Source: a virus
Virus record (IMG/VR): IMGVR_UViG_3300039412_000320
DNA: 64,000 bases
Direction: 5' to 3' (one strand)
Below the pieces are notes generated by a model, which had not been told where the DNA came from, did not search any database, and saw nothing but the letters and a program-made list of their open reading frames with translations. Positions 1-64,000 of the stretch are shown in pieces. Both the position numbers and the translations under genes were made by a program. Numbering within the stretch: the stretch's first letter is position 1; every line of letters starts with the position of its first letter.

Positions 1-483
1 GAGGTAAGGAAGGCAGCCAAAAACCAAGGAGAAAAATTCTATTCTTTCCCTCGTCCTTGTTCGGAGGGACACACGTCAAAACGGTTTGTAAGAAATACAG
101 AATGTTACCAATGTCACATTGAACAGTCTCATGCACGACGGGCTATCCGAGCAAGAACACAACGAGAATACAAAATGTATCATTCAGCTAAAGGACGAGC
201 AAGAGAGGGAGGACTAGAGTTTGGAATCACCATGGAAGATATTAAGAAAGCGTGGCCAAAAGACAATAAGTGCCCAATTTTAGGAATTGAATTAGAGTCC
301 AATAAAACTGGAATGGGGCCTCAACGTCAATCCCCATCACTTGATAGGATTGACCCTAAAGGAGGATATGTGGTTGGCAACATCGCTGTTATATCCTACA
401 AAGCTAATTGCATAAAACAAAATGAAACTAATCCCGAAATTTTTGAATCAATGGCTAGGTGGTTACGTTTTAATAAAAAGTAG
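1..483 (+). CDS. HNH-family homing endonuclease, 5'-partial (frame is open to the window start)
   Basis: In-frame with no stop from nt 1. Zn-finger CSEGH..CYQCH, then SPSLDRIDPKGGYVVGNIAVISYKAN motif shared with ORFs 12924-13310 and 63122-63874. Confidence 0.55.
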   Translation, partial: EVRKAAKNQGEKFYSFPRPCSEGHTSKRFVRNTECYQCHIEQSHARRAIRARTQREYKMYHSAKGRAREGGLEFGITMEDIKKAWPKDNKCPILGIELESNKTGMGPQRQSPSLDRIDPKGGYVVGNIAVISYKANCIKQNETNPEIFESMARWLRFNKK

Positions 484-494
484 AGGAGGAAAGT

Positions 495-2063
495 TTGTCA
501 TTTGATATACAAGCTGATAAAAATCAAATAGGCTCTGTGTATCTTCTTCACTTCTTAGGAGGTGGGATTTTTCATGGGTCTCAAGCAAGGGTTCGCCATT
601 ATTGCGGATTTGCTTTAGACCCCGAGGCCCGCATTGCTTTACATATGAATGGGACTTCACGGGCCAGACTTATGGAGGTTGCCCATCAGCGACATGTAGA
701 ATTTACCGTGGCTCGTATTTGGAGTGGAGTGACTCGTGAGTTCGAGCGCAAACTCAAGAACAGTGGTGGTCTGTCCCGCCACTGCCCAATTTGTAAGGCG
801 GAGGGTACCGACCGGGATTCTGTGCGTAAGAAACAGCAGGCTCCTGCGGTGCAGGAAGTACGGGTAGTGGAGGAGAACGAAGTAAAGCATATCGAGCTTA
901 TCCCAAGACCCAAGACCGCTGCGCTCACAAGAGACAACGCCCGTTGGAATGGCAAGCCGTTTTCCTTGGGAGCGGTGTCCTTGCTGGATGGGCACATTGA
1001 AGAAGCCCACAACTATCAGGAGTGCAAGGCGGGTGGATGGCACCACAGCCACATATTCAGCCAGCCGATTCTGGAGAGGGAACAGAGTGAATACGACTGG
1101 ACCAAAACCGACCCTCGTGCCCCCGAAGGTCCGCAAGGTGGTGGACCCGCCATCGGCTGGGGCGATACCCCATGGGGAGACTCCCATGGAAAGACCAGTG
1201 GAGATATCACCATATTCTGGGTAGAAGATGATGGGTCAATCGGTTGCAACTACCCACTTCCCGAAAATATCAAAGCGGCCATTAAGAAGCAGATTCAGGT
1301 CATCAGGTGGAGAAGGGCCGCTGAGGAGGATACACTTGCCAAGCTCGTATGGCAGTTCCGAGAGGAACAAGAGGATTGGTATGAGTGGTTAGAGGACAAA
1401 TCCTGTTTCCGTGAACAGTGCCTCTGTTTGGCGGACCTGTTAGCGAAGTTTCTGCGGGAACATGGTTTCCCTGATGCCCATCGGGCGGGTGGGTATTATG
1501 GAGAAGGACCGGAGAAGGGTGAGTATTTACAAGTAGGAAGGCATGGACTACATTGGTGGGTAGAGACGCAGGATAAAATCATCGACATCACCTGCGACCA
1601 ATTCCACCCCGGAGAAGAAGATGATTGGCGAGTGGTAATCACCGACCTTAACGACCCGGAGTATCAACGAAAGGGCACCGGCTCGGCGTTGGTCCCCAAG
1701 ACCGCTGAGGAGATTCCCGAGATTCTCTATCACGTGACTTTTAAGAGCCGGGTTCCTAAGATACTTCAAGAGGGACTGGTTCCCCAAAAGGAGCCGAACT
1801 TCCCCTTTGAGGAGAACCGGGGTTTAGTATTTCTGACGGCGATTGAGGGAGTGGATTATTGGAAAAACCTTCTCGCCGAGTTTATACGGGGCAAGGATGA
1901 TGAGTTGGTTACTCTTCGCATCAAGACTGAGGGGATGCGTTTGGCAAAGGACCCCTTGGGAATGGGAGAAACTGGTGTTCTTTCATATTCAACCCACCTT
2001 GTTCCCCCCAAGAATATCACAGTGCTACCAGAGCCAAGAAAGATTGCCTCCGTAGAACAATAG
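495..2063 (+). CDS. Multidomain protein: N-terminal GIY-YIG-like nuclease domain, CPICKAE zinc ribbon, C-terminal KptA/Tpt1-like LYH(V)T domain
   Basis: GSVYLL..HYCGFALDPEARIALHMNG..FERKLKN resembles GIY-YIG motifs. ILYHVTFKS..LVFLTAIEG..LVTLRIKT aligns to KptA FLYHGTAS..YVHLSADEA..VILTVKA. SD aggagg upstream. Confidence 0.5.
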   Translation: MSFDIQADKNQIGSVYLLHFLGGGIFHGSQARVRHYCGFALDPEARIALHMNGTSRARLMEVAHQRHVEFTVARIWSGVTREFERKLKNSGGLSRHCPICKAEGTDRDSVRKKQQAPAVQEVRVVEENEVKHIELIPRPKTAALTRDNARWNGKPFSLGAVSLLDGHIEEAHNYQECKAGGWHHSHIFSQPILEREQSEYDWTKTDPRAPEGPQGGGPAIGWGDTPWGDSHGKTSGDITIFWVEDDGSIGCNYPLPENIKAAIKKQIQVIRWRRAAEEDTLAKLVWQFREEQEDWYEWLEDKSCFREQCLCLADLLAKFLREHGFPDAHRAGGYYGEGPEKGEYLQVGRHGLHWWVETQDKIIDITCDQFHPGEEDDWRVVITDLNDPEYQRKGTGSALVPKTAEEIPEILYHVTFKSRVPKILQEGLVPQKEPNFPFEENRGLVFLTAIEGVDYWKNLLAEFIRGKDDELVTLRIKTEGMRLAKDPLGMGETGVLSYSTHLVPPKNITVLPEPRKIASVEQ

Positions 2064-2075
2064 GAAGACAAGAAT

Positions 2076-3116: not shown

Positions 3117-3157
3117 TGGGGGTGATATCTTTTGACTTCGTATCTATTATATAGAGG

Positions 3158-3946
3158 ATGCGAATGACTATTAGAGGCAATTGCACCGTTTGTGGGGGGA
3201 ACTTCAAGCGTCGTTATGCTAAGAACTCCGTTCCTATTGTGAAGCTCTGTTCTAATAAGTGCAGAAGGGAGTGGCTACAAAAGGACAAGGTCAAAAAGGA
3301 GTGCATCGTTTGTAATAAGGTATTTTCCGTAAGCGCCTCAGTAGCTTATAGATATGTCACCTGTAGTATTGAATGCAAGCGTAAACATAAGGAGGGGGAT
3401 AAAAATGGAAACTGGCGAGGCGGTATAGCGGGAAATAGAAAGAAAGAGATTCGTTCCGGTAAGCTTCGTCGTTGGCGGAAAGCGGTCTTTGAAAGAGATG
3501 GACCCCACTGTGTCTTATGCGGGTCTAGTGATGGGTTAGAGGCTGACCGCATAAAGCCATGGTCTCTCTATCCAGAGTTTAGATATGAAGTAAGTAATGG
3601 ACGGATATTGTGCAAGATTTGTCATAACAAGCACACCAGAGAGTTAGCCGCCGAACGAAAGAGACTTGAGGCATTGGGGTATGTACGGATAACTTGTCCA
3701 CGAGAGTACGAGATTTTGGTTTGTCCCAGATGTGGGGTATCTTTCCTTAACAAGAGTGGTCAGAGTATCTATTGCGGAAAAAGGTGTCAAAGAGCGGAAG
3801 GACAGAAACGGTTAAGGGTAGCTAAAGCTGCCCGTGGGGAATGTAAGTGTTGTAGCAATCCAGTTGCCCCTAATTACAGTCGTTGTATTAGATGTCTCGA
3901 AAAGCAAAGAGTGGAGATGGCTGAATACAGAAAGCCTGATGTATGA
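3158..3946 (+). CDS. HNH endonuclease with multiple CxxC zinc fingers
   Basis: Many CxxC pairs. GPHCVLCGS..LEADRIKP..N..LCKICHNKH HNH core. Ends with ATGA overlap onto the next ORF. Confidence 0.55.
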   Translation: MRMTIRGNCTVCGGNFKRRYAKNSVPIVKLCSNKCRREWLQKDKVKKECIVCNKVFSVSASVAYRYVTCSIECKRKHKEGDKNGNWRGGIAGNRKKEIRSGKLRRWRKAVFERDGPHCVLCGSSDGLEADRIKPWSLYPEFRYEVSNGRILCKICHNKHTRELAAERKRLEALGYVRITCPREYEILVCPRCGVSFLNKSGQSIYCGKRCQRAEGQKRLRVAKAARGECKCCSNPVAPNYSRCIRCLEKQRVEMAEYRKPDV

Positions 3947-4656: not shown

Positions 4657-4664
4657 CAGAATAA

Positions 4665-4701
4665 ATGAACTTTCTGAAGCACTTATAGGGGGAAAGTTCA
4701 T
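4665..4701 (+). promoter_or_regulatory. RBS/start-codon sequestering hairpin upstream of GIY-YIG gene
   Basis: Perfect 10-bp inverted repeat atgaactttc / gaaagttcat. The 3' arm contains the ATG at 4700 and follows the SD aggggga. Confidence 0.5.
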
Positions 4702-5407
4702 GTTTATCTATTTGATTGTAAATCATGAAACAGGAAAGTATTATGTCGGTCAACATACAGGTCATAATCTAAAGAAGTACCTTCAACAAAAATTTTCAGA
4801 TGCCAGACACGGACGAGGGGGAAATTCTCGTCTTTATAATTCCATGCGTAAACACCCCTTTCCTCATCTTTGGTCCATCCACGCCCTCCGTTCCGATATC
4901 CAAGCTAAAGCCGAGCTTGATGAGACCGAGCGGGACTTCATCAAGTTCCTTCGTGCTCAAGACCCTGAGTATGGCTACAATCTTTGTCGTGGAGGGGAGG
5001 GGTTTACCGGACTGCATTCTTCTCAAACTTGTGCTAAAATGAGTGAAGGGGTTAAACGAGCTTGGGCTAACCCCGAAAAAAGAGCCAAGCAATCGGCAAA
5101 TCTCAAAGCTGACTGGGCTAAACCTGAGTCTTTTTCTAATCGGGTTCAAGCGATTAGGGATTCATGGGCGGACCCTTATTCTCGTTCTAATCGTATGAAG
5201 GCTTTTGAAAATCTTGATTTTCACAGTAAAATGAGCACGGTTAATAAGAAAACATGGTCTGACCCAGAGAGAAGGAAAAAACAAGCAGCACTTCAAAGAG
5301 AGCGATGGACAAACCCCGAATACCGTGCCAAAATGAGTAATCTAGCTAAAAATCAAAGCCGAGGTACGGGACAGAAGTTTGTTGAAGCACTACCACTAGA
5401 CTCTTAA
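4700..5407 (+). CDS. GIY-YIG homing endonuclease with NUMOD3-like repeats
   Basis: MFIYLIVNHETGKYYVGQHTG (GIY..YVG), conserved R/E/N downstream. Repeated W(A/S/T)NPE..R.K motifs (NUMOD3-like). Paralogue of 38479-39327. Confidence 0.75.
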   Translation: MFIYLIVNHETGKYYVGQHTGHNLKKYLQQKFSDARHGRGGNSRLYNSMRKHPFPHLWSIHALRSDIQAKAELDETERDFIKFLRAQDPEYGYNLCRGGEGFTGLHSSQTCAKMSEGVKRAWANPEKRAKQSANLKADWAKPESFSNRVQAIRDSWADPYSRSNRMKAFENLDFHSKMSTVNKKTWSDPERRKKQAALQRERWTNPEYRAKMSNLAKNQSRGTGQKFVEALPLDS

Positions 5408-5423
5408 ACTCTTTAATAGGCAC

Positions 5424-12800: not shown

Positions 12801-12934
12801 ATGGTTACCTCAAGGGGTTGGAGAACACCGAAGAAGCACCCCATTACCGGGGAGCTTCTCAAATGACCGCCGCCGATGACCGGCCCATGCCCAAGGAGTT
12901 TGTCACCACCAAGAACCTCAAGACTAACATTTAG
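6857..12934 (+). CDS. Giant polyvalent protein (2025 aa): transglutaminase-like Cys protease, 3 KptA/Tpt1-like domains, 3 copies of the GPxFDRIPRG module, MNT nucleotidyltransferase, zinc ribbon
   Basis: Uninterrupted 6 kb ORF with GTG start after SD agagggggg. GACKFISLF..GHQYNITPDGKPLD (C-H-D TGase-like). GSAARDELKPKSDIDVVIDFP (GS..DxD MNT). CPRCGSD..FCMDCKG. IAYHVS, ILYHGTT and PLYHGTS domains. Confidence 0.7.
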   Translation: MTPTRIRPTPKRLQTMPDNLTIYPVTPEWVSKAKVFLAEKWKERAQELGKSNPTDMSGACKFISLFGKTIFGLDIQGNWGHQYNITPDGKPLDLAEGFSGEVSYLHDSEFFNNPKHRESMASCMPRVRRWAEEFIQRYPLLDKTASTQTRWSHPLLNGLKAETRKAPTFEDFKHDFSIDIKHGLYFHVTDNPNFTIDPAKGPRDMSSMGGGTPVPGKLMVTSHLENWTDYYESDRAYVAVIDMSEVPRESYHQVSRGFGNEFWVENPQAVKVAAVMPVKEAIKLDRTYQNVLDLHSDEDLLEFYNQFHAPAEPEWKPPKEQGKLPFRGKGIPVVAYEPCDFELLWATWHNKVLLTDDMGLWHVKWFQELNQHSQRHDPIPSWGPEFDKVPRGRAEVNKKKKRVRLYTDAAPKGSRAGESITGEVDFDFTPEEVVAKIKQKYPSLRDFEFVDEVAPRIMGKWAADEFEYPQIAYHVSRRRSRNSILKNGLQMYHKQQYEDVEHEPAVYLFGSLTDAENWVGEQQPYTGQACDIWEVKVPQGEGTFWPDFEVRHEYPTAWKYLWDIPPQNIKLIKTISLPKQAALPTGKAIDDLGISGQQGWSYDEPFPDRHNDFYEDDQVQNPHNEHPLTASLSPAYTEEVKKLEYEHELISLAEEMGNFERVVWERQPVLKTHMLDTVGLAGSANDYPHLRAVHVGDPDYWFSRLTEDYSRDSKAWVVEIYPTEDDYLCDDVQYAMDPSGGDKAYSAILITPRTQLVEGKDFRYVKELTEEDLPEVYDEDDGFGFKDAAIKKTVIMWVRHEGKLYTTVQVGGKSHAQWLEELSLPFSGPSYDRIERGVAIVDRGHRVVHLVKNAGGYTPNDVVEYIKNRYNLKEFIFVDTESSDTGIVAFKKVASDDAYYDAAEAFFDRESVVAVEVITEYMQHVRQKRYRQQWNVVPAARLIKIWEDYMKTGFVRDSAGLNQIAETVIDNCFKIYVNSILCGHSAMGPEEYALEMLEREGISKKFPEDYFKRAPDYFDTPEGGWRISDQAEGRLMNLVQGVYLAKSDEDKLQALDKVLQFSHPRSDLSSWLVQGGRTTLNRLFTGMNEYERWEQYGGVEEAKELNKEFNKGRNAPLIPKEAWSTEPGGEPLKPETQSTIAEMVADIRKIYPECQRISLAGSAARDELKPKSDIDVVIDFPKGTPAWDMVERDQPLWDKYQQVEGRMVDFIIHVKGGPHAGQYDYREELGLPNPMKTLWEATTKTASFSVEGEGWLTPDGRFLPNAFGEKHEDSALRLGFLTKEEAKKIKNDTQRKEQVIAKGNIRVGFSNTGNTIFFESKTLDADTKNLIGMGLENLPRGVRKVSVSTQDEMYYLWTLQEAQEVFWGNEPMPQNMAYLSVASKTAALPGLGLLQPGHGDDSSAFDPGYYMTEGCGIFAVDADYRYWGKDVIQPLMTAKTAKTASEWGGFCPRCGSDQTAWAMHSATTDTYFCMDCKGSTDIERDMHPDLRSAMKIAGLVGYPWAIWEGKVLLSPRGMAHTDWFSRMGIPDRGPEFDRIPRGNFYIDKAKRQIYVWTDAETYDYSKNPSEESLDDTVVFGPWGGRRFDLEFTPPEVIEAIKRKYPYTEAYEVVDWMPPGSVHKWSSGEWWRRWRKTYLISKGTILYHGTTEDFPAMDIQTPAWFSTSESVAEYFKAWHGGEEGEQRILKFQVTKPIRLPRIDGSEDLERLADMFNFPSPLSGHDYVEDLAQVLPGWIIPHNYPDGDDILLVSDRDIIPINEPEEEEEEISQEGLPPGAWRNNSGLPGYWTREGTTTIYHMTPEEIAEREQRLQKRSAAEPVKAEEATWSRPLYHGTSAYRAKKIKAQKSFYGETEGYNEMGVGVYTHPSMNRTSPWAAGRAQGAFMELHFTRPLKLAVKNPQGEWVSSMGGESHRFISKAPTQRELVDAGYDGIYDKHGTTQVPHQVLLFNQPVLGSGGAHKLNQLIDWDKVRIINFNESQHGYLKGLENTEEAPHYRGASQMTAADDRPMPKEFVTTKNLKTNI

Positions 12935-13310
12935 TTTTTAGTGCGTTTACCATCCTGTCAAAATCAACATCAGGAAAAGCACCTCGTGCCCTATTATAAA
13001 TCCAACAAGTAAGGCGAGTATTTTCTGGTGAATAATCTCCTGTTTGATTTCTGCGGTCTAAGGAGGGACTAAATGAGTTTGTTCTACTTCCTTTACCATT
13101 ACCAACATTTAACTCAAGGGGTAGGTTAGTTACTTCACATACTCCCCGTTCTAATTTTTTTCTAATCCAGTCCTGAGTTATAAGACACTGCACTTTATCC
13201 TTTATTGCTCTTTTCCGAGCATTGTTGAGCATGAAAGCCGCCCGGCCCTTAGTTGTGGTGTAGTATTTTGAAAACTTACGCCAATTTTGTTCTCGTTCCT
13301 TAGTTGTCAT
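12924..13310 (-). CDS. HNH-family (SxDRxxxxGxY type) homing endonuclease-like
   Basis: SPSLDRRNQTGDYSPENTRLTCWIYNRA parallels the 1-483 and 63122-63874 motif. Confidence 0.5.
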   Translation of the reverse strand: MTTKEREQNWRKFSKYYTTTKGRAAFMLNNARKRAIKDKVQCLITQDWIRKKLERGVCEVTNLPLELNVGNGKGSRTNSFSPSLDRRNQTGDYSPENTRLTCWIYNRARGAFPDVDFDRMVNALKTKC

Positions 13311-19843: not shown

Positions 19844-19854
19844 TACTGGTTATT

Positions 19855-20538: not shown

Positions 20539-20600
20539 GGCGGGCTCCCCTCTTCAACCACCCATGAAAAGCTATGGTAGACTATTTTGAAGTCTCCAAT

Positions 20601-38433: not shown

Positions 38434-38478
38434 TGGAAAAATGAACTTTCCAAAGTATTTATAGGAGTAGAGTTCAAA

Positions 38479-39327: not shown

Positions 39328-39358
39328 TTTAATTTTCCCATAAAACTGAGTATTTTAT

Positions 39359-48990: not shown

Positions 48991-49024
48991 AAGATGGGTT
49001 TTTGGGTGGGTTTTTTGCGTTTAT

Positions 49025-49099
49025 GGTGACTGTAACTCAGTGGCAGAGTGCCTGACTGTGAATCAGGATACGGGGGTTCGATTCCCCTCAGTCACCCCA
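49025..49099 (+). tRNA. tRNA-His(GTG) with encoded G-1
   Basis: g-gtgactg/cagtcac, cctga-ctGTGaa-tcagg, ttcgatt T-loop, CCA encoded. Confidence 0.7.
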
Positions 49100-49104
49100 A
49101 GTTT

Positions 49105-49176
49105 GGTGAGTGAACCCCACAGGGTACTCGGTCTGGTCCGAGGGGGCGGGGGCAGCCCACTTCGTCATTCACCCCA
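49105..49176 (+). other. Unclassified CCA-ending structured element (9-bp terminal stem, no T-loop)
   Basis: ggtgagtga...tcattcacc-cca. Internal ctcgg-tctggt-ccgag and G-rich hairpins. Not a canonical tRNA. Confidence 0.3.
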
Positions 49177-49182
49177 ATATAT

Positions 49183-49260
49183 GGTCCCGTAGCTCAGCCC
49201 GTATAGAGCAACTCCCTCCGAAGGAGAAGGTCGTCGGTTAAAATCCGACCGGGACTTCCA
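49183..49260 (+). tRNA. tRNA-Arg(CCG)
   Basis: ggtcccg/cgggact, anticodon loop ctCCGaa, T-loop ttaaaat (atypical). Confidence 0.5.
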
Positions 49261-49266
49261 GATTAG

Positions 49267-49342
49267 GCCCCTGTAGCTCAGTGGACAGAGCGCCCGGTTT
49301 CGACCCGGATGGTCGCAGGTCCGAATCCTGTCAGGGGTTCCA
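49267..49342 (+). tRNA. tRNA-Arg(TCG)
   Basis: gcccctg/caggggt, cccgg-ttTCGac-ccgga, gcagg-tccgaat-cctgt. Confidence 0.5.
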
Positions 49343-49381
49343 AGATTTGAAAACAGTAATTGGACTTCGTAGTCCTTTAGT

Positions 49382-49798
49382 ATGAGGTCTAAGAACTGTT
49401 ACAAATGTGGTAAGGAAAAAGAGCACCGGTCAGCACCATACTGCCTCGAATGCCAGCGAGGCTACAATAAGCAAAACTACGAGAGGAATAAGACCTCGTA
49501 TGTTGAAAAAGCGAAACGGAATGGTGCAAGGTATAGGAAAGAAGCCATAGAGTGGGTCTTACAGTATTTGATGACTCACCCCTGTATCGACTGTGGAGAA
49601 TCTGACCCGATAGTCCTTGAGTTTGACCATCGGGAAGGAGAAAAGAAATTAGCAGCCGTTTCAACTTTAATGACACAAATGAAGGCATCATTAAAGACGA
49701 TAAAGGCTGAGATAGTTAAGTGCGACGTGCGATGCGCCAACTGTCACCGTCGTAAAACAGCGAAAGAAAGAGGTTGGTACAAGATTGAGGCCCCGTAG
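49382..49798 (+). CDS. HNH homing endonuclease inside the tRNA array
   Basis: CIDCGE..EFDHREGEKK..CANCHRRK. Stop codon abuts the start of tRNA-Arg(ACG). Confidence 0.6.
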   Translation: MRSKNCYKCGKEKEHRSAPYCLECQRGYNKQNYERNKTSYVEKAKRNGARYRKEAIEWVLQYLMTHPCIDCGESDPIVLEFDHREGEKKLAAVSTLMTQMKASLKTIKAEIVKCDVRCANCHRRKTAKERGWYKIEAP

Positions 49799-49868
49799 CT
49801 CAGCCCGGACTAGAGCAGCGGTCTACGAAACCGAAGGTCAGTGGGTTCAAATCCCCTCGGGGCTTCCA
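49789..49868 (+). tRNA. tRNA-Arg(ACG)
   Basis: ggccccg/cggggct, gcggt-ctACGaa-accga. D-arm near-identical to Arg(CCG). Confidence 0.55.
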
Positions 49869-50015
49869 AGATTGAGACCACGTGACGCACCCAAAGGGAT
49901 GGCGAGTCTGATGGGTTCGGTGGTAAGCAGGGCACCAGTTCTTCGGAACAGGCGAGGTCCCCAGCTATGCACTTCCCGCCCCTGCGGAGGGCGGTTGTCA
50001 CTGGTCACTGTTTGT

Positions 50016-50089
50016 TGGGATGTCATCCAATGGTAAGATGCCCGGCTGTTACCCGGAGAATGCAGGTTCGAGTCCTGCCGTCCCAGCCA
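50016..50089 (+). tRNA. tRNA-Asn(GTT), short D region
   Basis: tgggatg/cgtccca, anticodon loop ctGTTac, gcagg-ttcgagt-cctgc. Confidence 0.45.
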
Positions 50090-50254
50090 GTTTGAGGTCG
50101 TATGAGCGAGTGTCGCTGGTGTGATGAGGGTCGCCCTTGGTTGGCAGGTTGTGAGGGCAAACAGCACCAGCCGTTGTATGGTTCAGGCGAGCACTCAGGG
50201 ACGATGTGTCATAACAACTCGTCTATATATCCGCCTGAGAAGGAGACAGTTTCT

Positions 50255-50329
50255 TCTGGAGTAGCTCAACGGTAGAGCGTTCGGCTGTTAACCGAATGGT
50301 TGGGGGTTCGATTCCCTCCTCCAGAGCCA
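50255..50329 (+). tRNA. tRNA-Asn(GTT)
   Basis: tctggag/ctccaga (U1-A72), ttcgg-ctGTTaa-ccgaa, ggggg-ttcgatt-ccctc. Confidence 0.65.
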
Positions 50330-50335
50330 AAATAT

Positions 50336-50415
50336 GGAGTCGTGACGCAGATGTGGTTAAGCGTAGCCGCCTTTTAAGCGGACGGTCGTGGGCACCCAAT
50401 CCACCGGCTCCACCA
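50336..50415 (+). tRNA. tRNA-Lys(TTT) candidate with non-canonical T-loop
   Basis: ggagtcg/cggctcc, gccgc-ctTTTaa-gcgga; T-loop cacccaa lacks TTC. Confidence 0.35.
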
Positions 50416-50421
50416 AGATGT

Positions 50422-50498
50422 GCCGCCGTAACTCAACTGGACAGAGTACTCGGCTCTTGCCCGAGGAGTTGGAGGTTCGAGTCCTCTCGGCGGTACCA
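50422..50498 (+). tRNA. tRNA-Lys(CTT) (G37)
   Basis: gccgccg/cggcggt, ctcgg-ctCTTgc-ccgag, ggagg-ttcgagt-cctct. Confidence 0.5.
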
Positions 50499-50503
50499 AA
50501 TTT

Positions 50504-50579
50504 GGGTCGGTAGCTTAACTGGCAGAGCAGGGGCCTCTTAAGCCCAAGGTTGAGGGTTCGATTCCCTCCCGACCCACCA
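50504..50579 (+). tRNA. tRNA-Lys(CTT)
   Basis: gggtcgg/ccgaccc, ggggc-ctCTTaa-gccca, gaggg-ttcgatt-ccctc. Confidence 0.6.
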
Positions 50580-50654
50580 AGATGCTCTTGAGAGCGTATT
50601 ATAGGACTTAAGGTGCTCTCAAGATAATGCCGAGAAGTTTGAAAGTTTGGTTTT

Positions 50655-50731
50655 GCCTCTTTAGCTGATGCGGTGCATAGCGCCCGCCTGAAGAGCGGGA
50701 GAACAGAGTTCGACTCTCTGGGGAGGCACCA
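50655..50731 (+). tRNA. tRNA-Phe(GAA)
   Basis: gcctctt/gggaggc, cccgc-ctGAAga-gcggg, cagag-ttcgact-ctctg. Confidence 0.65.
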
Positions 50732-50737
50732 AGTTAT

Positions 50738-50811
50738 AGCGGAGTAGAGCAGTCAGGTAGCTCGGTTGGCTCATAACCAACAGGCCGCTGGTTCAAATCC
50801 AGCCTCCGCAA
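50738..50811 (+). tRNA. tRNA with CAT anticodon #1 (Met/fMet/Ile2), A1-A72 mismatch, CCA not encoded
   Basis: gagc/gctc D-stem, gttgg-ctCATaa-ccaac, gctgg-ttcaaat-ccagc. Confidence 0.55.
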
Positions 50812-50866
50812 CCTTGATACGCTACAGCGTATTAGCAACAGATATGCGGTGTAGCGTATGGTTTGA

Positions 50867-50943
50867 TGCGGGGTATAACTCTGGTGAGTTTCGGAGTCTC
50901 ATAAGCTCTGTAAAGGTGGGTTCAATTCCCATCCCCGCTACCA
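50867..50943 (+). tRNA. tRNA with CAT anticodon #2, U1-U72 mismatch
   Basis: ggagt-ctCATaa-gctct, gtggg-ttcaatt-cccat, acceptor gcgggg/ccccgc. Confidence 0.5.
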
Positions 50944-50947
50944 TCTT

Positions 50948-51024
50948 AGGGTTGTCTTGTAGCTCAGCGGAAGAGCGACCGGGGTACCGGGAGGTCGGTG
51001 GTTCGATTCCACCCATGCAACTCA
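50948..51024 (+). pseudogene. Degenerate tRNA-like element (good D- and T-arms, no acceptor pairing, aberrant anticodon region with palindromic ccggGGTACCgg)
   Basis: gctc-agcggaa-gagc and ggtgg-ttcgatt-ccacc present, but the 5' and 3' ends do not pair. Confidence 0.35.
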
Positions 51025-51140
51025 AGCCGTACGTGAGTGCCCCTTAAAAGGCCATTGTTTGGGCGGCGTAATTGTCGGGTAACATACTCATGGTGTGGCG
51101 CAGCGCAACCATCATGGCTCCCAAACACCACGTACGTTCT

Positions 51141-51215
51141 GGCTCGCTAGTTCAGTGGCAGAACGCCGCTCTCATAAGGCGGATGTCACAGGTTCGATTC
51201 CTGTGCGAGCTACCA
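51141..51215 (+). tRNA. tRNA with CAT anticodon #3
   Basis: ggctcgc/gcgagct, ccgct-ctCATaa-ggcgg, acagg-ttcgatt-cctgt, CCA encoded. Confidence 0.65.
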
Positions 51216-51371
51216 AGTTATGGCGGAAGCATACTGGACTGGCAAGGCTAACCGGTTTGAGTATGTGGGCTGAGGCCCGAGAGGTGAAAACCTCCCATTG
51301 TCCGTCACCGTTTGGAGGTTGACGAGTACTGGCTCTGATTAGCTGGGGGAGTACTGCCAAACCTCCATTAT

Positions 51372-51446
51372 CAGGTCCTAGCATAATGGTAATGCCCTAG
51401 TCTGGGGGACTAGTGATTGGCAGTTCGACTCTGCCGGACCTGACCA
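51372..51446 (+). tRNA. tRNA-Pro(GGG)
   Basis: C1-G72 acceptor caggtcc/ggacctg, ctagt-ctGGGgg-actag, gcat/atgc D-stem. Confidence 0.7.
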
Positions 51447-51483
51447 AAGTTTACGGGCTGTAGCTGAACGGCCTAACTTGTGC

Positions 51484-51558
51484 CGGGGCGTAGGGTAACG
51501 GTAACCCACTTGCTTTGGGAGCAAGTCGTTGGAGGTTCAAATCCTCTCGCCCCGACCA
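51484..51558 (+). tRNA. tRNA-Pro(TGG)
   Basis: cggggcg/cgccccg, cttgc-ttTGGga-gcaag, ggagg-ttcaaat-cctct. Confidence 0.7.
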
Positions 51559-51602
51559 AAAATATCACTCCGACCAATCTTCTGACTTCAGTATCTATTA
51601 GT

Positions 51603-52193
51603 ATGAAGAGTCAAGAAGTTGGTGGAGTGAATGTAAGACTTCCACACATCTGCAAAAAATGTGGGAAGGCATTAACTGAGGACGGTAAGAACTTCCCAAC
51701 ACGTTGGTCTAATGGGAATAAGTATTACCGATTTCTATGCCGTATTTGCTTTAATAAGCATAACAAACGTTGGAAACCTCGACATGGAATGACCGAGGGG
51801 GTTTACGAGCGAAGGAAACAGACTCTAAGCACCCAAAGGTATAAAGGCGAAGCAAGGCATGTTACAAACGACTGCAAGAGTTGGGATAAACGCCATGGGT
51901 TTGCCTGCGACCTTGACCGGAACTACGTAGCTGCTCTTATATCCACTGGCTGCCGATACTGTGGAGTAACCCAAAGAGAACTACGCATTGGGTTGGACCG
52001 ATTAGATAACATGCGGGGTCATTTGAAAAGTAACGTAATTCCCTGTTGCACAAGATGTAACATTGTTCGAGGAAATATGCCCTACAAAGCGTGGTTACTA
52101 ATCGCTGATACAATGCGAAAAGTTAGGGAGCTTGGGTTATTTGCGGATTGGGTTCCGGGAAATAAAAGCAAAGATTATTCCGGGGTCGTCTGA
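51603..52193 (+). CDS. HNH-family homing endonuclease inside the tRNA array
   Basis: CRYCGVTQRELRIGLDRLDNMRGHLKSNVIPCCTRCNIVRGNM. The longer ORF from 51480 overlaps tRNA-Pro, so the start was moved to MKSQEV. Confidence 0.55.
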   Translation: MKSQEVGGVNVRLPHICKKCGKALTEDGKNFPTRWSNGNKYYRFLCRICFNKHNKRWKPRHGMTEGVYERRKQTLSTQRYKGEARHVTNDCKSWDKRHGFACDLDRNYVAALISTGCRYCGVTQRELRIGLDRLDNMRGHLKSNVIPCCTRCNIVRGNMPYKAWLLIADTMRKVRELGLFADWVPGNKSKDYSGVV

Positions 52194-52203
52194 TTTAAAT
52201 TTT

Positions 52204-52282
52204 CGGTGTGTAGCTCAGCCCGGTTTAGAGCACTCCGTTCGGGGCGGAGGGGTCGGGAGTTCAAATCTCCCCACGCCGACCA
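52204..52282 (+). tRNA. tRNA-Pro(CGG)
   Basis: cggtgtg/cacgccg, ctccg-ttCGGgg-cggag, gggag-ttcaaat-ctccc. Confidence 0.7.
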
Positions 52283-52334
52283 AGATTGATTTATACGTCA
52301 AGTTTACCCCTCTGGGGCTAAAAGTTGACGTAAA

Positions 52335-52409
52335 TAGCAAGATATTCCAGAGTCCTCTAACGGTAGGAGAACCGGCTCTGACCCGGTTAATGAGAGGTTC
52401 GAGTCCTCC
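52335..52409 (+). tRNA. tRNA-Gln(CTG) candidate (U1-A72)
   Basis: accgg-ctCTGac-ccggt perfect anticodon arm, ctct/ggag D-stem. The acceptor has two mismatches. Confidence 0.45.
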
Positions 52410-52460
52410 CCTCGGAGCCAAGCTAGCCCGGAAAATGTGGGTTCGAGTCCCACCGGATAA
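52410..52460 (+). pseudogene. tRNA 3'-half fragment (T-arm plus 3' acceptor only)
   Basis: gtggg-ttcgagt-cccac-cggataa with no 5' half upstream. Confidence 0.4.
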
Positions 52461-52519
52461 TCGCATGGAGTAGCCTTCCCGTCAGGCAGAACGCCCCCAG
52501 CGACCCGTCATTCAATGGT

Positions 52520-52655
52520 AGGATACCGGGGATTGATTCAGGGAGAAGGTTGCGGGTTCGAGTCCCGTCGCCCCGCCATGCGGGGCGTAGCTCAATGGTA
52601 GAGCGTCTCCCATGATGCAGCCGGAAAAACGGGGTTCGAGTCCCCGTAGGACATG
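52520..52655 (+). pseudogene. Cluster of tRNA fragments / degenerate tRNA
   Basis: T-arm gcggg-ttcgagt-cccgt + cgccccg, then ccatg, then cggggcg-ta-gctc-aatggta-gagc with no pairing anticodon arm, then another T-arm cgggg-ttcgagt-ccccg. Repeated catggta motifs. Confidence 0.4.
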
Positions 52656-52749
52656 GTACAGCGTAGCCTCATGGTAGCTGTGACCAAGATAACCATGGTA
52701 CTCTTGGTCTTGACCTTCGTTTATTTGGATAAGACACCGGCGTGAGTTT

Positions 52750-52839
52750 AGGGGTGACGGGCAATCTGGTTCGGCCCAGCGGTCTCCAAAACCGTCTTCC
52801 TTCGGGATACTGGGGGTTCAAATCCCTCCACCCCTGCCA
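52750..52839 (+). tRNA. Class II (long variable arm) tRNA with CCA anticodon
   Basis: aggggtg/cacccct, gcggt-ctCCAaa-accgt, 16-nt variable arm cttccttcgggatact, ggggg-ttcaaat-ccctc, CCA encoded. Confidence 0.5.
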
Positions 52840-52914
52840 AGATTCTAATGTAAATTTTTGGTGCAGATAGAGTCTCCAAATCTACGCTATGCAACTCATA
52901 TATTGGAGGATTGT

Positions 52915-53259
52915 ATGGCGACAGAAGCTTGGAAAACATCTCATCAAGAAGAAATGAAAGCATACAGGAGAAAACATTATCAAAATCACAAAGAGCCATA
53001 TCTTATCCGAGCAAAGAACCAAAGGAAAGAAATTAGAGATTGGTTCAAGGAGTTCAAACGCTCTCTAAAATGTGCTCGTTGCCCGGAAAATCATCCTGCA
53101 TGTTTAGATTTTCATCATAGAGATTCAAGCAAAAAAGACATGTCAATAAGGCAAGCTGTGAACCAAGGTTGGGGAAAGAAACGAATCCTTGCTGAGATAA
53201 GAAAATGCGAAATACTATGCTCTAACTGTCACAGGAAGGAGCACCATCCTGAAATTTAA
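52915..53259 (+). CDS. HNH homing endonuclease
   Basis: CLDFHHRDSSKKDMS..LCSNCHRKEH. SD ggagga before the ATG at 52915. Confidence 0.6.
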   Translation: MATEAWKTSHQEEMKAYRRKHYQNHKEPYLIRAKNQRKEIRDWFKEFKRSLKCARCPENHPACLDFHHRDSSKKDMSIRQAVNQGWGKKRILAEIRKCEILCSNCHRKEHHPEI

Positions 53260-53882: not shown

Positions 53883-54434
53883 ATGGGATACGCTGACGTA
53901 CTTGTACTAGACATGAACTGGATACCCGTGGGCTTCATGGGCTGGCAGAACGCCGTCAAGCTCTGGTTCGAGGACCGTGCCAAGATTGTCAAGGAGGACG
54001 AGGGCGGGAAGGTCCTGCACTCACCGTCCTTTGAAATGGGCATGCCAAGGGTGATAGTCGTTCGCAACGCTTGGCATCGCCGTAAGAAGCAGTCCGTCCC
54101 CTGCACCCGGCGCAACCTGTTAGTGCGTGACAATGCAACATGCCAGTACTGCGGCAAGGTGGTCCACACCTCGGAATACACGATTGACCACGTCATCCCG
54201 CTTTGCCAGAAGGGCAAGTCCGACTGGGACAACCTTGCCATCGCCTGTATGCCGTGCAACAAGGAAAAGGCCGGACGTACCCCGGCGCAGGCGGGCATGA
54301 CCTTGCTCAGCAAGCCCTATACGCCGAAGCCCACGGACCCCCGCTTCAACTTCAAGCTGCATATCAGCAAGATAAGGAACGAGTGGAAAGATTACGCACC
54401 GTACCTATACTGGAATGTTGTACTTGATAAATGA
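53883..54434 (+). CDS. HNH endonuclease
   Basis: CQYCGKVVHTSEYTIDHVIPLCQKGKSDWDNLAIACMPCNKEK. SD aaggagg. Confidence 0.65.
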   Translation: MGYADVLVLDMNWIPVGFMGWQNAVKLWFEDRAKIVKEDEGGKVLHSPSFEMGMPRVIVVRNAWHRRKKQSVPCTRRNLLVRDNATCQYCGKVVHTSEYTIDHVIPLCQKGKSDWDNLAIACMPCNKEKAGRTPAQAGMTLLSKPYTPKPTDPRFNFKLHISKIRNEWKDYAPYLYWNVVLDK

Positions 54435-54467: not shown

Positions 54468-55265
54468 GTGGAGCCATATGGGGAAGTATACATTATCGTA
54501 AACCAAGTCAACAACAAGGTATATATCGGGCAAACCATAAGAACCCTGCACGAGCGATGGCTGGCTCATTGTAGGAGAGCCAAAGCGGGTGGGACAAATT
54601 GTGCATACTTCTATAATGCCATCCGAAAATATGGAGAAGGTAGCTTCAAAGCCTATCGTATAAATGTTGCCTTCTCCAAAGAAGAATTGGATACCCTTGA
54701 GGTCTCCTATATTGAAAAGTTTAAGGCGTGCGACCCTGAATATGGATACAACTCAACTCTTGGAGGCGGAGGGGTAGTTGCGAATGAGGCTACTCGTCAA
54801 AAATTCAAAGAGGCGAACAAAGGCGAAAGAAATCCAATGTTTGGTAAGCATTGTTCAGAGCAGACTAGACAAAGGATGAGTGCCTCCCAAAGGGGACACT
54901 CAGTCCCAGAAAGCACTAGAAAGGCTGTTGCAGAATCAAACAGGAGAAGAGCTGGAAAACCACAAGCTCCCCACAAGTCTGGCTGGAAACACTCCGATAC
55001 CAGTAAGCAAAAAATGCGGGAAGCATTAAAAGGAAGAACCTCGGCTTGGAATAAAGGCAAAAAAATGCCAGAAGGCTTTGGTGAAAAAATAGCCAAGGCA
55101 AAGCGTGGGAAACCACGACCGGTGCATGTAATAGCAGCCTTGAGGGAAGCTAATAGAAAAAGACCACCTGTGCGCTGGTTATGTAAAGATGGCGTAGCAA
55201 TCAAAATTGCGGCATCCGAAGTTATTAACCGCCTCTGTGATGGTTGGAGGCTAGGAAGGAAATAA
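54468..55265 (+). CDS. GIY-YIG homing endonuclease with NUMOD-like repeats
   Basis: EVYIIVNQVNNKVYIGQTIRTLHERWLAH. Repeated R(N/H)P..GK and SGWKHSDTSKQKMREA motifs. Upstream ataaatgaact motif. Confidence 0.7.
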   Translation: MEPYGEVYIIVNQVNNKVYIGQTIRTLHERWLAHCRRAKAGGTNCAYFYNAIRKYGEGSFKAYRINVAFSKEELDTLEVSYIEKFKACDPEYGYNSTLGGGGVVANEATRQKFKEANKGERNPMFGKHCSEQTRQRMSASQRGHSVPESTRKAVAESNRRRAGKPQAPHKSGWKHSDTSKQKMREALKGRTSAWNKGKKMPEGFGEKIAKAKRGKPRPVHVIAALREANRKRPPVRWLCKDGVAIKIAASEVINRLCDGWRLGRK

Positions 55266-58033: not shown

Positions 58034-58630
58034 GTGGGGGTGATTATGCCTGACGTAATTTGTAGTGGTTGCAACAAAACGTTTTCAAAGTCTGAAAATC
58101 GGATACAAACGTGGTTAAAACGTAGGAATCAGAGGCACTTTTGCAGTAAAAAATGTCGGCGGGAATTAACTGTAAAGACCCACACAGTGGGGTGTTCCGT
58201 ATGCAAAAACTACTTCATCAAGGTCGGGATGCCAACTGATAGGATAAAAAACCACTATTGCCCCAACTGTCGAGGTAAAGTTGAATTTAAGTGTTGCATC
58301 TGTGGGAAATCATATAAACGATATAAATCGGCCATTCGTTTCCGAAAAAGAAAGAAGAACTATTGTTCAAAACAGTGCAAAAATGTTGGACAACGCATGG
58401 ATTGGGGTGTCATTACTAATCGAGCTAGTCTTAGATTAAAGTGGGTTCGTCAGTTCGGCAAGGCTGCCCTTATTTGTGTTCGATGTAAGTATGACAAACC
58501 CTATAATATCGAACTTCACCACAAAATTTATGTTGTAGATGGGGGAAGTAACAATCCCGATAACCTAGAACCACTATGTAAAAATTGCCATGGAGAAGAA
58601 CACTACAAAGTCAAGCCGGACGATGATTGA
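58034..58630 (+). CDS. HNH homing endonuclease with Zn fingers
   Basis: IELHHKIYVVDGGSNNPDNLEPLCKNCHGEEH. Confidence 0.6.
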   Translation: MGVIMPDVICSGCNKTFSKSENRIQTWLKRRNQRHFCSKKCRRELTVKTHTVGCSVCKNYFIKVGMPTDRIKNHYCPNCRGKVEFKCCICGKSYKRYKSAIRFRKRKKNYCSKQCKNVGQRMDWGVITNRASLRLKWVRQFGKAALICVRCKYDKPYNIELHHKIYVVDGGSNNPDNLEPLCKNCHGEEHYKVKPDDD

Positions 58631-62163: not shown

Positions 62164-63135
62164 CTACTCCTTTGAAGCGGGGTCACTTCTTGACCCCTCT
62201 GCCAACTGAATCACACCACCATCCAAATAAGGCTCGATAGCATGGCGTAAGTTGTAACTGTTGTCGTCATGCACCACGAGGATGGAACTCATTCTCGGGA
62301 CGATGATGCACGTCTCGTTTGCCACATCGTGAGCACAGAAAATGTTGTAGGCCATACGGCGGGAGAACAGAACTTGATTGAGGATTTCTCCGCCCGACTT
62401 GGAACGGAACACATAGGGAATACCTTCCGCTTGGAAAGTGATGTGGTCAGAAGACGCCGGGGGAATAGTTGCCATGGTCGGCCCGCTCCCCGGCCCCCAA
62501 AAGACATAAGAGGCCCGCAGGCCGGGCATCACCTTAAGATACCTGTCCGCCCCGATACCAAGGCTGCTGACATTATTGCTGTCCACCAGCGCCGGGGTGC
62601 TGCCCTTGGGGCTGACCCGCCATGAAAGGTTGGGGGTAAAGTTGGCGATGATTTTCAATGACCGGATGGTGCTGAGGTCCTGATTGAACTTCTCATCCTC
62701 CGTCGTCATGTTGGCGGAAAGCTTCACCATTTTCGACCCCGGCATGAAGGGGCTACGCTTGTTGTTCTTCCACCACTCTTCCATGGTCTTGAGGTCCTGT
62801 TCGGCGCTCAAAGCTTGGTATGCCATGCCAACATACGATTGCAGGTTGAGCATCACCTGTGTGAAGAGGTTGTAGTCCAGCAGGGTTGTGAGCTTCTTGA
62901 GAACTACACTCCGGTCATAGCCGGTCGGCTCCGCCTTAACTTCTGGCCCGGCCTCCAGCCAAGAATCTCTAAAAAGCAGGTAAATAAGACCACCCCAGTT
63001 ATTTGTTCGGTCAAAGGTAAGGTTAGAAAAGTGTTTTAAAAACCAATCCTTGAGGGTTTGTTCAGACTCAAATACCTCATTAACCTTCTCTGAAAAACTT
63101 ACCGCTACTCGGTCATAAATTTCAGTCGATTCCAT
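62164..63135 (-). CDS. hypothetical protein
   Basis: 323-aa ORF. Confidence 0.45.
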   Translation of the reverse strand: MESTEIYDRVAVSFSEKVNEVFESEQTLKDWFLKHFSNLTFDRTNNWGGLIYLLFRDSWLEAGPEVKAEPTGYDRSVVLKKLTTLLDYNLFTQVMLNLQSYVGMAYQALSAEQDLKTMEEWWKNNKRSPFMPGSKMVKLSANMTTEDEKFNQDLSTIRSLKIIANFTPNLSWRVSPKGSTPALVDSNNVSSLGIGADRYLKVMPGLRASYVFWGPGSGPTMATIPPASSDHITFQAEGIPYVFRSKSGGEILNQVLFSRRMAYNIFCAHDVANETCIIVPRMSSILVVHDDNSYNLRHAIEPYLDGGVIQLAEGSRSDPASKE

Positions 63136-63874
63136 GGGCTTTCATCCTTTCTATAAGCCTTTCAAGCTCTTTCCGGCTGGCGTTATTTTTTAACAAGTTA
63201 GCTCTAAAACTCACCACCCAAACATTACTTTTAACATACCCGGATGAGGGGTTTTTCCTATCTAACGAGGGAGTATTTCCATCCCAACCATGTTTTTTAT
63301 GGGTAAGTTTTATATCCAAGAGGGGGCAAACCTCTGGAATGATGATGTCATCTGGAGAAATGTTGAATAAAATCCCCCGCTTTTTGGCACGGCTCTTAGC
63401 TTTTTCCCACAGCCTGAATTCCGGGGTAGACTTATGTTTTTCCAACCTATATTTGTTTCGTCTTGGTGAACAAGCCTTACACCCCCCTGATTGACTACGG
63501 GGATAAAAATTGAGATTCCCTGTTGTAGCAATCAAGGTGTTTCCACAATCACATCGGCATAACCAATATTGTGCATTTTTGCTTTTATAATGTGGGGGTG
63601 CCTTGGTTCTTTCTACCACAACTAATTTTCCGAAACGTTTACTAGTCAAATCCATACGCTGCTTTCGCCTGCATCCGCAGCTTGTAGATACCCCTTGATG
63701 GAGGACACTAGCGGACACCAGCTTTTCAGTGCCACATTTGCACCTGCATTTATAAACTACTCCCGAGTGACTTGAACCTACGGGTTGACGTTCCCCCACC
63801 GTCCACCACCCAAATTGTTGTCCAGTTAAATCCTCACGATGGTATTTTCCGTTGTTCATTACCGTATCCCCCAC
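63122..63874 (-). CDS. HNH-family (SxDRxxxxGY type) homing endonuclease with Zn fingers
   Basis: Multiple CxC/CxxC motifs. TPSLDRKNPSSGYVKSNVWVVSFRAN as in 1-483 and 12924-13310. Confidence 0.55.
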   Translation of the reverse strand: MGDTVMNNGKYHREDLTGQQFGWWTVGERQPVGSSHSGVVYKCRCKCGTEKLVSASVLHQGVSTSCGCRRKQRMDLTSKRFGKLVVVERTKAPPHYKSKNAQYWLCRCDCGNTLIATTGNLNFYPRSQSGGCKACSPRRNKYRLEKHKSTPEFRLWEKAKSRAKKRGILFNISPDDIIIPEVCPLLDIKLTHKKHGWDGNTPSLDRKNPSSGYVKSNVWVVSFRANLLKNNASRKELERLIERMKAHGID

Positions 63875-63908
63875 TAATTAATCCAATAGTTCGGATTTTC
63901 ATTCCGTG

Positions 63909-64000
63909 GGGTCACCACCGGGAGCATCCACCACCTCTTGTGCCAACTCATACAGCGGCTCCCGCTCTCCCGGAGGAATGATGCTATCCTCATTCATTAA
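63909..64000 (-). CDS. partial ORF running off the window end
   Basis: Frame open to nt 64000 on the minus strand. Confidence 0.2.

Follow-up and report, generated by a model that had tools for sequence, protein, structure and literature searches.

Exceptional density of homing-endonuclease-type genes in a 64-kb stretch of phage DNA from peat-bog metagenomes

Free-standing homing endonucleases are regarded as drivers of mosaicism and of competition when phages co-infect, and the well-studied cases (T4, ICP1 and others) are few. Phage T4 has 15 homing endonucleases in 169 kb (PMC7344957), and its SegB is situated in the transfer RNA (tRNA) cluster (PMC2330249); the Dickeya phage LIMEstone1 has 14 in 152 kb, making up 10% of its DNA (PMC3296691), the Pectobacterium phage CB7 has 23 in 142.8 kb (~7%), described by its authors as "one of the largest numbers described" (PMC7344957), and the Jug jumbo phages of the gut have ~4.7 on average in 360-402 kb (PMC12880540). 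Here we examine a stretch of viral DNA of 64,000 nucleotides, IMG/VR record IMGVR_UViG_3300039412_000320 (hereafter the window, meaning the whole stretch), in which we count 22 endonuclease units that together occupy 13,119 bp, or 20.5% of the sequence. These units comprise classical HNH genes, PacI-like His-Me nucleases, an endonuclease VII-type gene, GIY-YIG genes (some with NUMOD3), a LAGLIDADG intein and a fused LAGLIDADG domain, and we consider it probable that several unrelated families of mobile homing endonuclease genes have colonised the lineage heavily.

By the figures found in the literature searched, the load per kilobase is about twice that of CB7, at ~0.33 units/kb in the 64-kb window compared with 0.16 in CB7 and 0.09 in T4, and the exceptional richness claimed in an earlier preliminary description of this DNA is thus supported. 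The density figures cover the window and 13.7 kb of its flanks on a 338-kb contig; the flanks are also dense, since the 9.1 kb downstream of the window contain two GIY-YIG genes recognised by Pfam and the 4.6 kb upstream add one further gene of GIY type (three in 13.7 kb). Like the seg (GIY-YIG) and mob (HNH) genes of T4 (PMC2988022, PMC2330249), the units show intergenic, intron-less placement, the same two main catalytic families, presence or absence between relatives, insertion among tRNA genes and beside nucleotide-metabolism genes, and a modular build of nuclease plus DNA-binding domain (NUMOD3). In contrast to T4, the window is ~3.5 times denser, adds PacI-like, endonuclease VII-type and fused I-CreI-type LAGLIDADG units, and is known from sequence alone. 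With CB7 and LIMEstone1 it shares a high endonuclease load and close relatives that carry few, whereas the CB7 set is mostly HNH with five members in introns, and no group I introns were detected in the window, where Rfam at gathering thresholds returned only tRNAs. Lineage-specific enrichment of endonucleases beside essential genes has similarly been described for ICP1 and other phages (PMC10448857), a further likeness being a divergent allele that adjoins an endonuclease domain, as at 40111 in the window; the families emphasised in that study, T5orf172 and IPA-HNH, were not found here.

Open reading frames (ORFs) are present at all 21 coordinates of the preliminary description, and 19 of these ORFs have profile or homology support, 13 as HNH-type (His-Me finger), four as GIY-YIG and two as LAGLIDADG (Table 1; units are named by their first coordinate). 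The support for 19855 is indirect and 28793 is a fragment, while one unit missing from that list, the endonuclease VII-type gene 24443-24874, completes the total; scans of the other ORFs in the window against PHROGs gave no nuclease genes beyond these. Against PHROGs, which is built from phage proteins, the 13 HNH-type ORFs match HNH or endonuclease families at expect values (E) of 4e-5 to 6e-46, three GIY-YIG ORFs are supported at 3e-15 to 2e-32, and at least seven distinct PHROG families occur among the units. The curated Pfam cut-offs are passed by six listed units only, namely 3158, 53883 and 58034 (HNH), 36115 (NUMOD3), 54468 (GIY-YIG and NUMOD3) and the intein (LAGLIDADG_3). The preliminary description had named failure of most ORFs at HNH/GIY-YIG thresholds as the outcome that would speak against it; for Pfam this is literally what was found, but PHROGs, Protein Data Bank (PDB) profiles and the comparative data overturn it, and the failures reflect the limited sensitivity of Pfam for divergent families, not the absence of the domains. 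By eye, the canonical D/E-H, Asn, Asn/His motif is carried by 29459, 36115, 48613, 49382, 52858, 53883, 58034, 24443 and the 28793 fragment, and D-R replaces D-H in 1-483, 3158, 12924, 16676, 51603 and 63122. Twenty of the 22 units are free-standing: some occupy short intergenic spacers, some separate neighbouring tRNA genes and others are placed at the 3' end of a gene.

Table 1. Endonuclease units of the window and the tRNA arrays that host or adjoin them (values after PHROG names are E values; aa, amino acids; GC, G+C content)
Feature	Position	Strand	Match or other basis
PacI-like His-Me nuclease, cut by window edge (204 aa in full contig)	1..483	+	phrog_3322 7e-31; LDR..GY..N motif; GC 40%
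Free-standing HNH gene, zinc-ribbon N-terminus	3158..3946	+	Pfam HNH 23.3 bits (cut-off 21.4); phrog_1271 2e-22
Free-standing GIY-YIG gene	4700..5407	+	phrog_314 3e-15; below Pfam cut-off
PacI-like His-Me nuclease, convergent on giant ORF 3' end	12924..13310	-	phrog_3322 9e-23
Divergent GIY-YIG homing-endonuclease-type gene	15639..16331	-	GRKNVESGH repeats, C-terminal RWNINHGKPCTCG motif; GC 43%
PacI-like His-Me nuclease (NLDR..PY..N..CCKRCN)	16676..17296	-	phrog_3322 2e-11; Pfam HNH 19.3 bits, under cut-off
403-aa intein with LAGLIDADG endonuclease domain	18134..19342	-	LAGLIDADG_3 33.9 bits (cut-off 22.5); Intein_splicing 33.1 bits (cut-off 35.8)
Mobile endonuclease-type gene, putative	19855..20538	-	C-terminal repeats and RWN(I/V)xRGKPCTCG motif common with 15639; GC 44%
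Endonuclease VII-type His-Me nuclease	24443..24874	+	Pfam Endonuclease_7 74.5 bits; phrog_2633 3e-30; GC 43.5%
HNH core remnant (CxCPGC..DH..N..CFNCN)	28793..28996	+	frame translation
tRNA array 1, 8 tRNAs, hosts HNH 29459	29133..30692	+	
HNH gene inside tRNA array 1	29459..30085	+	phrog_10822 6e-46 over aa 2-164
HNH + NUMOD3 homing endonuclease gene, between thyX and dCMP deaminase	36115..36768	+	phrog_655 5e-45; NUMOD3 38.6 bits
Free-standing GIY-YIG gene	38479..39327	+	phrog_314 3e-15; below Pfam cut-off; GC 37%
I-CreI-family single-motif LAGLIDADG domain	40606..41031	+	phrog_5046 3.5e-17; I-MsoI, I-CvuI, I-CreI E 0.008-0.02
Small HNH gene, head of tRNA array 2	48613..48990	-	weak: HNH_3 19.5 bits, phrog_7545 4e-5; canonical HH..N..N..CH motif
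tRNA array 2, 17 tRNAs, hosts or adjoins HNH 48613, 49382, 51603, 52858	49026..52839	+	
HNH gene between tRNA-Arg(tcg) and tRNA-Arg(acg)	49382..49798	+	phrog_2255 2e-29
PacI-like His-Me nuclease (GLDR..GH..N..CCTRCN), between tRNA-Pro(tgg) and tRNA-Pro(cgg)	51603..52193	+	phrog_1035 8e-13
HNH gene directly after tRNA-Trp	52858..53259	+	phrog_3106 7e-23; GC 39%
Conserved HNH nuclease	53883..54434	+	Pfam HNH 51 bits; phrog E 3e-31; GC 56%
GIY-YIG + NUMOD3 homing endonuclease gene beside tRNA array 3	54468..55265	+	Pfam GIY-YIG 39.3 bits, NUMOD3 64.6 bits; phrog_314
HNH gene, zinc-ribbon N-terminus	58034..58630	+	Pfam HNH 40.1 bits; PHROGs 9e-14
PacI-like His-Me nuclease, N-terminal repeats	63122..63874	-	phrog_3322 4e-32, phrog_374 3e-29

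Exact-protein look-ups matched the window to many independently assembled peat and bog metagenome contigs, the longest of which is ENA ERZ27250039 k141_400892 (338,351 bp). Identity to these contigs, which come from different samples, is 99.96-100%, apart from a 2,613-bp segment missing from the window at ~11,111. Because identical sequence was recovered in many independent assemblies, an assembly artefact or chimera is ruled out, and the window is, judging from these contigs, part of the genuine ~338-kb genome of an uncultivated jumbo phage from peat-bog metagenomes. GenBank phages gave no nucleotide match to the window, a megablast search with its giant ORF was likewise empty, leaving no cultured relative for comparison, and a PHROGs scan of its large ORFs was mostly empty. 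Two IMG/VR contigs (316,945 and 237,553 bp) are relatives with proteins 88-97% identical; they align to ~55% of the window, with nucleotide identity averaging 90%. Throughout, "the relative" denotes IMGVR_UViG_3300041809_000571, of which five loci were tiled and compared with the window by blastn; junctions were taken from the ends of the high-scoring segment pairs, global junction alignments with MAFFT being ambiguous at several loci.

All but one of the 22 units are missing from this ~90%-identical relative, which has an orthologue of 53883 only (86.7% nucleotide identity). At six units it holds 0-54 bp: 24 bp compared with 779 bp in the window for 4700 (4645-5424), 19 with 710 bp for 36115 (36025-36735), 8 with 910 bp for 38479 (38420-39330), 54 with 443 bp for 48613 (48562-49005), 51 with 787 bp for 19855 (19848-20635) and 0 with 1,209 bp for the intein. 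The flanks of 1-483 are nearly joined in the relative, and the interval is shortened there at 3158 (230 bp compared with 999 bp, 3103-4102), 24443 (263 with 511 bp) and 52858 (263 with 490 bp), while unrelated sequence with no nuclease homologue lies at the places corresponding to 12924, 15639/16676, 54468, 58034 and 63122. Presence/absence polymorphisms relative to close kin, which the preliminary description had predicted, were thereby found for nearly all units. Identical queries recovered six nuclease-type ORFs in ~102 kb of the relative compared with 22 in the 64 kb of the window. In addition to their absence from the relative, 21 of the 22 units have a GC content of 37-47%, as opposed to 53.2% elsewhere in the window (~51% overall), and 2,000 random size-matched sets included none with so low a value; the nuclease genes of the relative have the same low-GC bias. 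The remaining unit, 53883 (56%), is probably a conserved core gene and not mobile, since it combines native GC with conservation in the relative.

Three arrays contain the 27 tRNA genes of the window, and the positions of these tRNAs bear out the earlier proposal that HNH and GIY-YIG genes interrupt the arrays, with seven such genes and a fragment in or beside the arrays (28793, 29459, 48613, 49382, 51603, 52858, 53883 and 54468). The tRNA arrays of the relative have HNH genes of their own, of another family or at another position: its array 1 contains an HNH gene of a family other than that of 29459, and an HNH protein 26% identical to 49382 is encoded one tRNA further along. The counterpart of array 2 consists of 23 tightly packed tRNAs, and at the site of 51603 the two tRNA-Pro genes are 24 nt apart. 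Similarly, the arrangement of thyX (35408-36061), HNH gene and dCMP deaminase (36746-37213) was confirmed, the relative having no HNH gene in its 19-bp spacer. The fragment 28793, which matches no profile in Pfam or PHROGs, lies within a 1.4-kb segment absent from the relative, and its first Cys pair is upstream of any start codon. The HNH ORF 29459 has no stop codon of its own and runs through tRNA-Leu(cag) (29933-30011) to end within tRNA-Leu(tag). Among the tRNAs themselves, tRNA-Trp (52750-52839) and tRNA-Arg(cct) (55276-55365) are 90 nt each, the former with a variable region ~12 nt longer than in the two tRNA-Trp genes of the relative, and the tRNA at 30606-30689 is at the Rfam threshold for tRNA-Sec and is called tRNA-Ser(cga) by ARAGORN.

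A box written SPSLDR..G(G/D)Y, shared by HNH genes of the window, had been taken as an indication of intragenomic spread. The box is real, with C, L-D-R, N and N invariant in an alignment of five proteins (1-483, 12924, 16676, 51603 and 63122), but it is a PacI-type catalytic signature, and because its carriers are only 13-37% identical to one another it marks a family, not recent copying within the genome. A profile of the five sequences matches PacI (3ldy_A) at E 4e-7 and 33 bits, query positions 37-102 aligning with 61-132 of the chain. In the His-Me group to which PacI belongs, which is predominantly viral, the catalytic histidine is absent and a tyrosine of the omega loop takes its place (PMC5714182, group 20). 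Likeness to PacI (3ldy/3m7k) extends to D-R in place of D-H, a conserved metal-binding Asn, the match to the beta-beta-alpha-metal core, and, in four of the five proteins, a Tyr that precedes the structural Asn by three residues and is by analogy the predicted catalytic substitute; 51603 has His at this position. They differ from PacI in that the CxxC zinc motif is kept in 16676 and 51603 but not in the other three, and in their N-terminal domains; moreover, PacI is a bacterial rare-cutting restriction enzyme, whereas the window proteins are phage genes behaving as mobile insertions. HNH 3158 also has D-R for D-H with a Tyr three residues ahead of Asn, by eye the same D-R...Y-x3-N arrangement as in the PacI-like proteins.

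For 12924, 45 metagenomic homologues were found, many of them 50-76% identical and none with a Pfam domain. One homologue (73% aa identity), on a distant phage contig (L036), occupies the same position, convergent on the 3' end of a homologous giant gene, where the flanking protein is only 55-60% identical to that of the window; the sample from which this contig derives (ERZ27250189) also holds the window lineage. A second homologue (66%) lies in a different context on contigs L040 and L041, and searches of the relative for homologues of 12924 and 63122 found none. The gene thus occurs patchily at the same site, and since homologues 66-73% identical are present in other phage contigs, 12924 appears to have spread between genomes, not within one; being more conserved than its flanks and absent from the nearest relative, it bears a classical homing signature. 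This pattern of an element more similar than its flanks is demonstrated for 12924 only. The more distant, phage-like contig L040 also carries IS605 OrfB/Cas12f-like (TnpB) and IS1595 transposase genes (3244-4137 and 6984-7670), which adjoin an HNH gene and a NUDIX-thyX-dCMP deaminase module.

Among the GIY-YIG units, 4700 and 38479 form the only close paralogue pair of the window, with 63% aa identity over the first 142 residues (the catalytic domain), 73-74% nucleotide identity and differing C-terminal halves, and immediately upstream, outside the window, is a third gene related to them (L001 229-1080). The Tyr, Tyr, Glu and Asn columns are invariant in the GIY-YIG alignment, which is shallow. 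The divergent ORF 15639 has PHROGs matches to unannotated families only, and seven of the 39 homologues collected carry NUMOD3. The profile of its N-terminal family matches a PDB entry described as a GIY-YIG domain-containing protein (9u75) at E 3.5e-6, and UvrC weakly, and hhalign compares it with the GIY-YIG domains of the window at E 7e-5 and a probability of 62%; a two-sequence alignment of 15639 with 19855 was negative against GIY-YIG by hhalign, the result becoming positive, for 15639 only, after homologues were added. At the locus of 15639 the relative has different cargo. For 19855, no Pfam or PHROGs match was obtained and profile comparisons were negative. Its AlphaFold2 model has an overall predicted local distance difference test score (pLDDT) of 52, with an N-terminal domain at 54-82 in the beta-beta-alpha-beta-alpha order seen in GIY-YIG; Foldseek found nothing significant, the best compact match being the GIY-YIG domain of UvrC at a template modelling (TM) score of 0.47. 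We describe 19855 as a probable mobile endonuclease-type gene of unassigned catalytic family.

The endonuclease VII-type gene 24443 lies on the strand opposite to its neighbours. F-CphI of cyanophage S-PM2, which represents a homing endonuclease family with an endonuclease VII catalytic motif and is a free-standing mobile phage gene (PMC6083498), is the nearest comparison by motif type, for this gene and for an endonuclease VII-type gene of the relative (4969-5667; phrog_2914, 3e-25). The latter lies, with a 1280-aa ORF, in a 5.4-kb insertion (L014 1126-6530) that interrupts or extends the orthologue of a 522-aa gene of the window (495-2063); it was considered as the occupant of the 1-483 locus and rejected, the insertion being a separate one ~370 bp downstream.

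The two LAGLIDADG units are of different kinds. The intein in a Clp ATPase, as previously described, was confirmed: it corresponds to residues 168-570 of a ClpB-like AAA+ ATPase gene (17357-19843), reads CFITG...FQVHN|S at its ends (Cys1, His-Asn, +1 Ser) and is inserted in a conserved G|SPPGY motif, where the relative reads KLVG|SPPGYLG uninterrupted. In these features it resembles other LAGLIDADG inteins of conserved ATPase motifs, and the segment has the sequence hallmarks of an intein, with splicing predicted. In the gene 40111-41031, an N-terminal half that encodes a dATP/dGTP diphosphohydrolase-N domain continues in frame into a LAGLIDADG domain, and the C-terminal 140 residues of the protein align end to end with I-MsoI, I-CvuI and I-CreI (Pfam scores of 17.7 and 16.3 bits, below cut-off). 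In contrast to the homodimeric enzymes of the I-CreI family, this domain resides in no intron or intein and is part of a diphosphohydrolase-N protein. The orthologue in the relative (L015 3576-4118; 181 aa) is without the LAGLIDADG domain, and the N-terminal part is only 55% identical to it, compared with ~90% nucleotide identity in neighbouring genes; a divergent allele amid such flanks is consistent with co-conversion.

The mechanism we propose is intron-less homing in the style of the T4 seg and mob genes. On co-infection with a related phage without the gene, the nuclease would cut the empty allele near the insertion point, and repair from the endonuclease-bearing genome would copy the gene and some flanking DNA into the recipient. 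The sequence data establish domain identity, foreign composition, presence or absence in the relative and, for one unit, a patchy distribution, and from these we infer cleavage activity, target sites, directionality and homing itself. Several observations weigh against colonisation by mobile genes as we describe it. Just six listed units reach the Pfam cut-offs and several candidates give nothing, 19855 among them having no assignable nuclease fold. Six HNH-type proteins have D-R where the general-base histidine is canonical, and the Arg/His pair of 54468 aligns, in a shallow alignment, with Tyr/Lys in 4700 and 38479, so that some of these enzymes may be inactive. Several loci of the relative contain other cargo in place of an empty site, which could be replacements unrelated to homing, and absence from the relative could in principle reflect loss there, not gain here. 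Moreover, near-identical strain contigs (>=99.96%) have no presence/absence polymorphism, and no ongoing homing within the population was seen; the gene-length differences among these contigs are gene-caller effects.

The last of these points invites a reading in which most units are fossils of a past invasion, fixed in a clonal population, dead or decaying, and immobile, an account we regard as rather unlikely though worth serious attention. Some units may indeed be inactive, namely the clear remnant 28793, those with non-canonical active sites, and the ORF 29459, which has lost an independent stop and reads into tRNAs; the uniformity of contigs from many samples fits as well. Yet 21 ORFs remain intact, with no truncation when set against the profiles they match, the combination of D-R and Tyr is active in PacI (PMC5714182), the low GC has not ameliorated, and a related phage with a 12924 homologue co-occurs in the same sample.

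Colonisation by mobile genes also has to be set against the proposal that the units are working phage genes, serving host-DNA degradation, packaging-associated HNH functions, junction resolution, or as anti-phage or anti-defence weapons, which a jumbo phage could afford. HNH 53883, with its conservation and native GC, would suit such a role, endonuclease VII-type proteins are classical resolvases (Pfam PF02945), and PacI-like viral proteins have been speculated to be viral restriction enzymes (PMC5714182). As a general account, however, we give it little credence: the relative is otherwise collinear at the sites where 21 of the 22 units are missing, the units are foreign in GC and are inserted between tRNA genes and in operons such as thyX/dCMP deaminase, the relative lacks even the endonuclease VII-type gene, which is opposite in strand to its neighbours, and several units have modular tails for DNA binding, NUMOD3 among them, of the sort typically seen in homing enzymes. 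We consider it very improbable that most of the load stems from a few endonuclease genes duplicating and spreading inside this genome, for although the 4700/38479 pair with its third copy upstream and the LDR..GY motif common to five proteins point that way, every other pair is <=37% identical or undetectable by BLASTP, the shared motif is a PacI-type active site, at least seven PHROG families are represented, and 12924 has much nearer kin (66-76%) on other contigs than among its paralogues in the window.

Other differences between the lineages and contigs were noted. Within ORF 6857-12934, the window at ~11111-11117 has 2,613 bp (871 codons) fewer than the fetched contigs that span the site (L001 15694-18308); the deletion joins a 1546-aa ORF with a weak NTP_transf_2 match and a 1345-aa ART-PolyVal ORF into one 2025-aa ORF, with a 7-bp overlap at the junction. 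Gene order at ~27.4-62.0 kb of the window compared with 72.6-181.5 kb of the relative implies an inverted block of ~35 kb; in the relative, the orthologue of 62164-63135 is inverted beside tRNA array 1 and the 1-26 kb block is inverted downstream. The inversion breakpoints in the window were searched for inverted repeats and none were found. An 810-aa protein (30761-33193, minus strand) matches MVP_shoulder (77.9 bits) and Vault_3 (41 bits), both above Pfam cut-offs; this vault-protein-like gene, unusual for a jumbo phage, is 94% conserved in both IMG/VR relatives. The private insertions of the relative are mostly ordinary accessory genes, among them a tRNA nucleotidyltransferase, a Thg1-like tRNA-His guanylyltransferase and a nucleotide-sugar epimerase (L019 15579-16949, L012 1006-1788 and L015 13210-14235), as well as collagen-like fibres; an RlaP-type RNA-repair nucleotidyltransferase is present in both lineages (window 46554-47576). 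The collagen-like (Gly-X-Y repeat) tail-fibre-type genes (window 21371-23584, minus strand; relative L019 12290-13834 and L017 5460-6281) are highly repetitive, and their number and location vary from one lineage to the other.

Elements of the kind described here are well known, and no novel type of biological system is revealed; the notable features are the load, the range of families represented, the PacI-like among them, and the availability of a sister genome almost free of endonucleases. The window offers 21 compositionally foreign nuclease genes of at least five catalytic types, and the empty sites in the ~90%-identical sister make their predicted targets directly testable. The data also point to PacI-type tyrosine nucleases as mobile elements, and they show that the tRNA arrays of a jumbo phage, like that of T4, serve as landing pads. 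More tentatively, the PacI-like nucleases, which have a tyrosine in place of the catalytic histidine and no Pfam family, might form an unrecognised family of free-standing phage homing endonucleases, with five or six members here, and a present or recent burst of invasion in this lineage might have placed about one-fifth of 64 kb under selfish nuclease genes, a possibility for which we hold something short of even expectation. If this were true, the lineage and its nearly endonuclease-free sister in similar samples would provide a natural before-and-after system for homing-driven genome reshaping, including that of tRNA arrays and possibly the 35-kb inversion.

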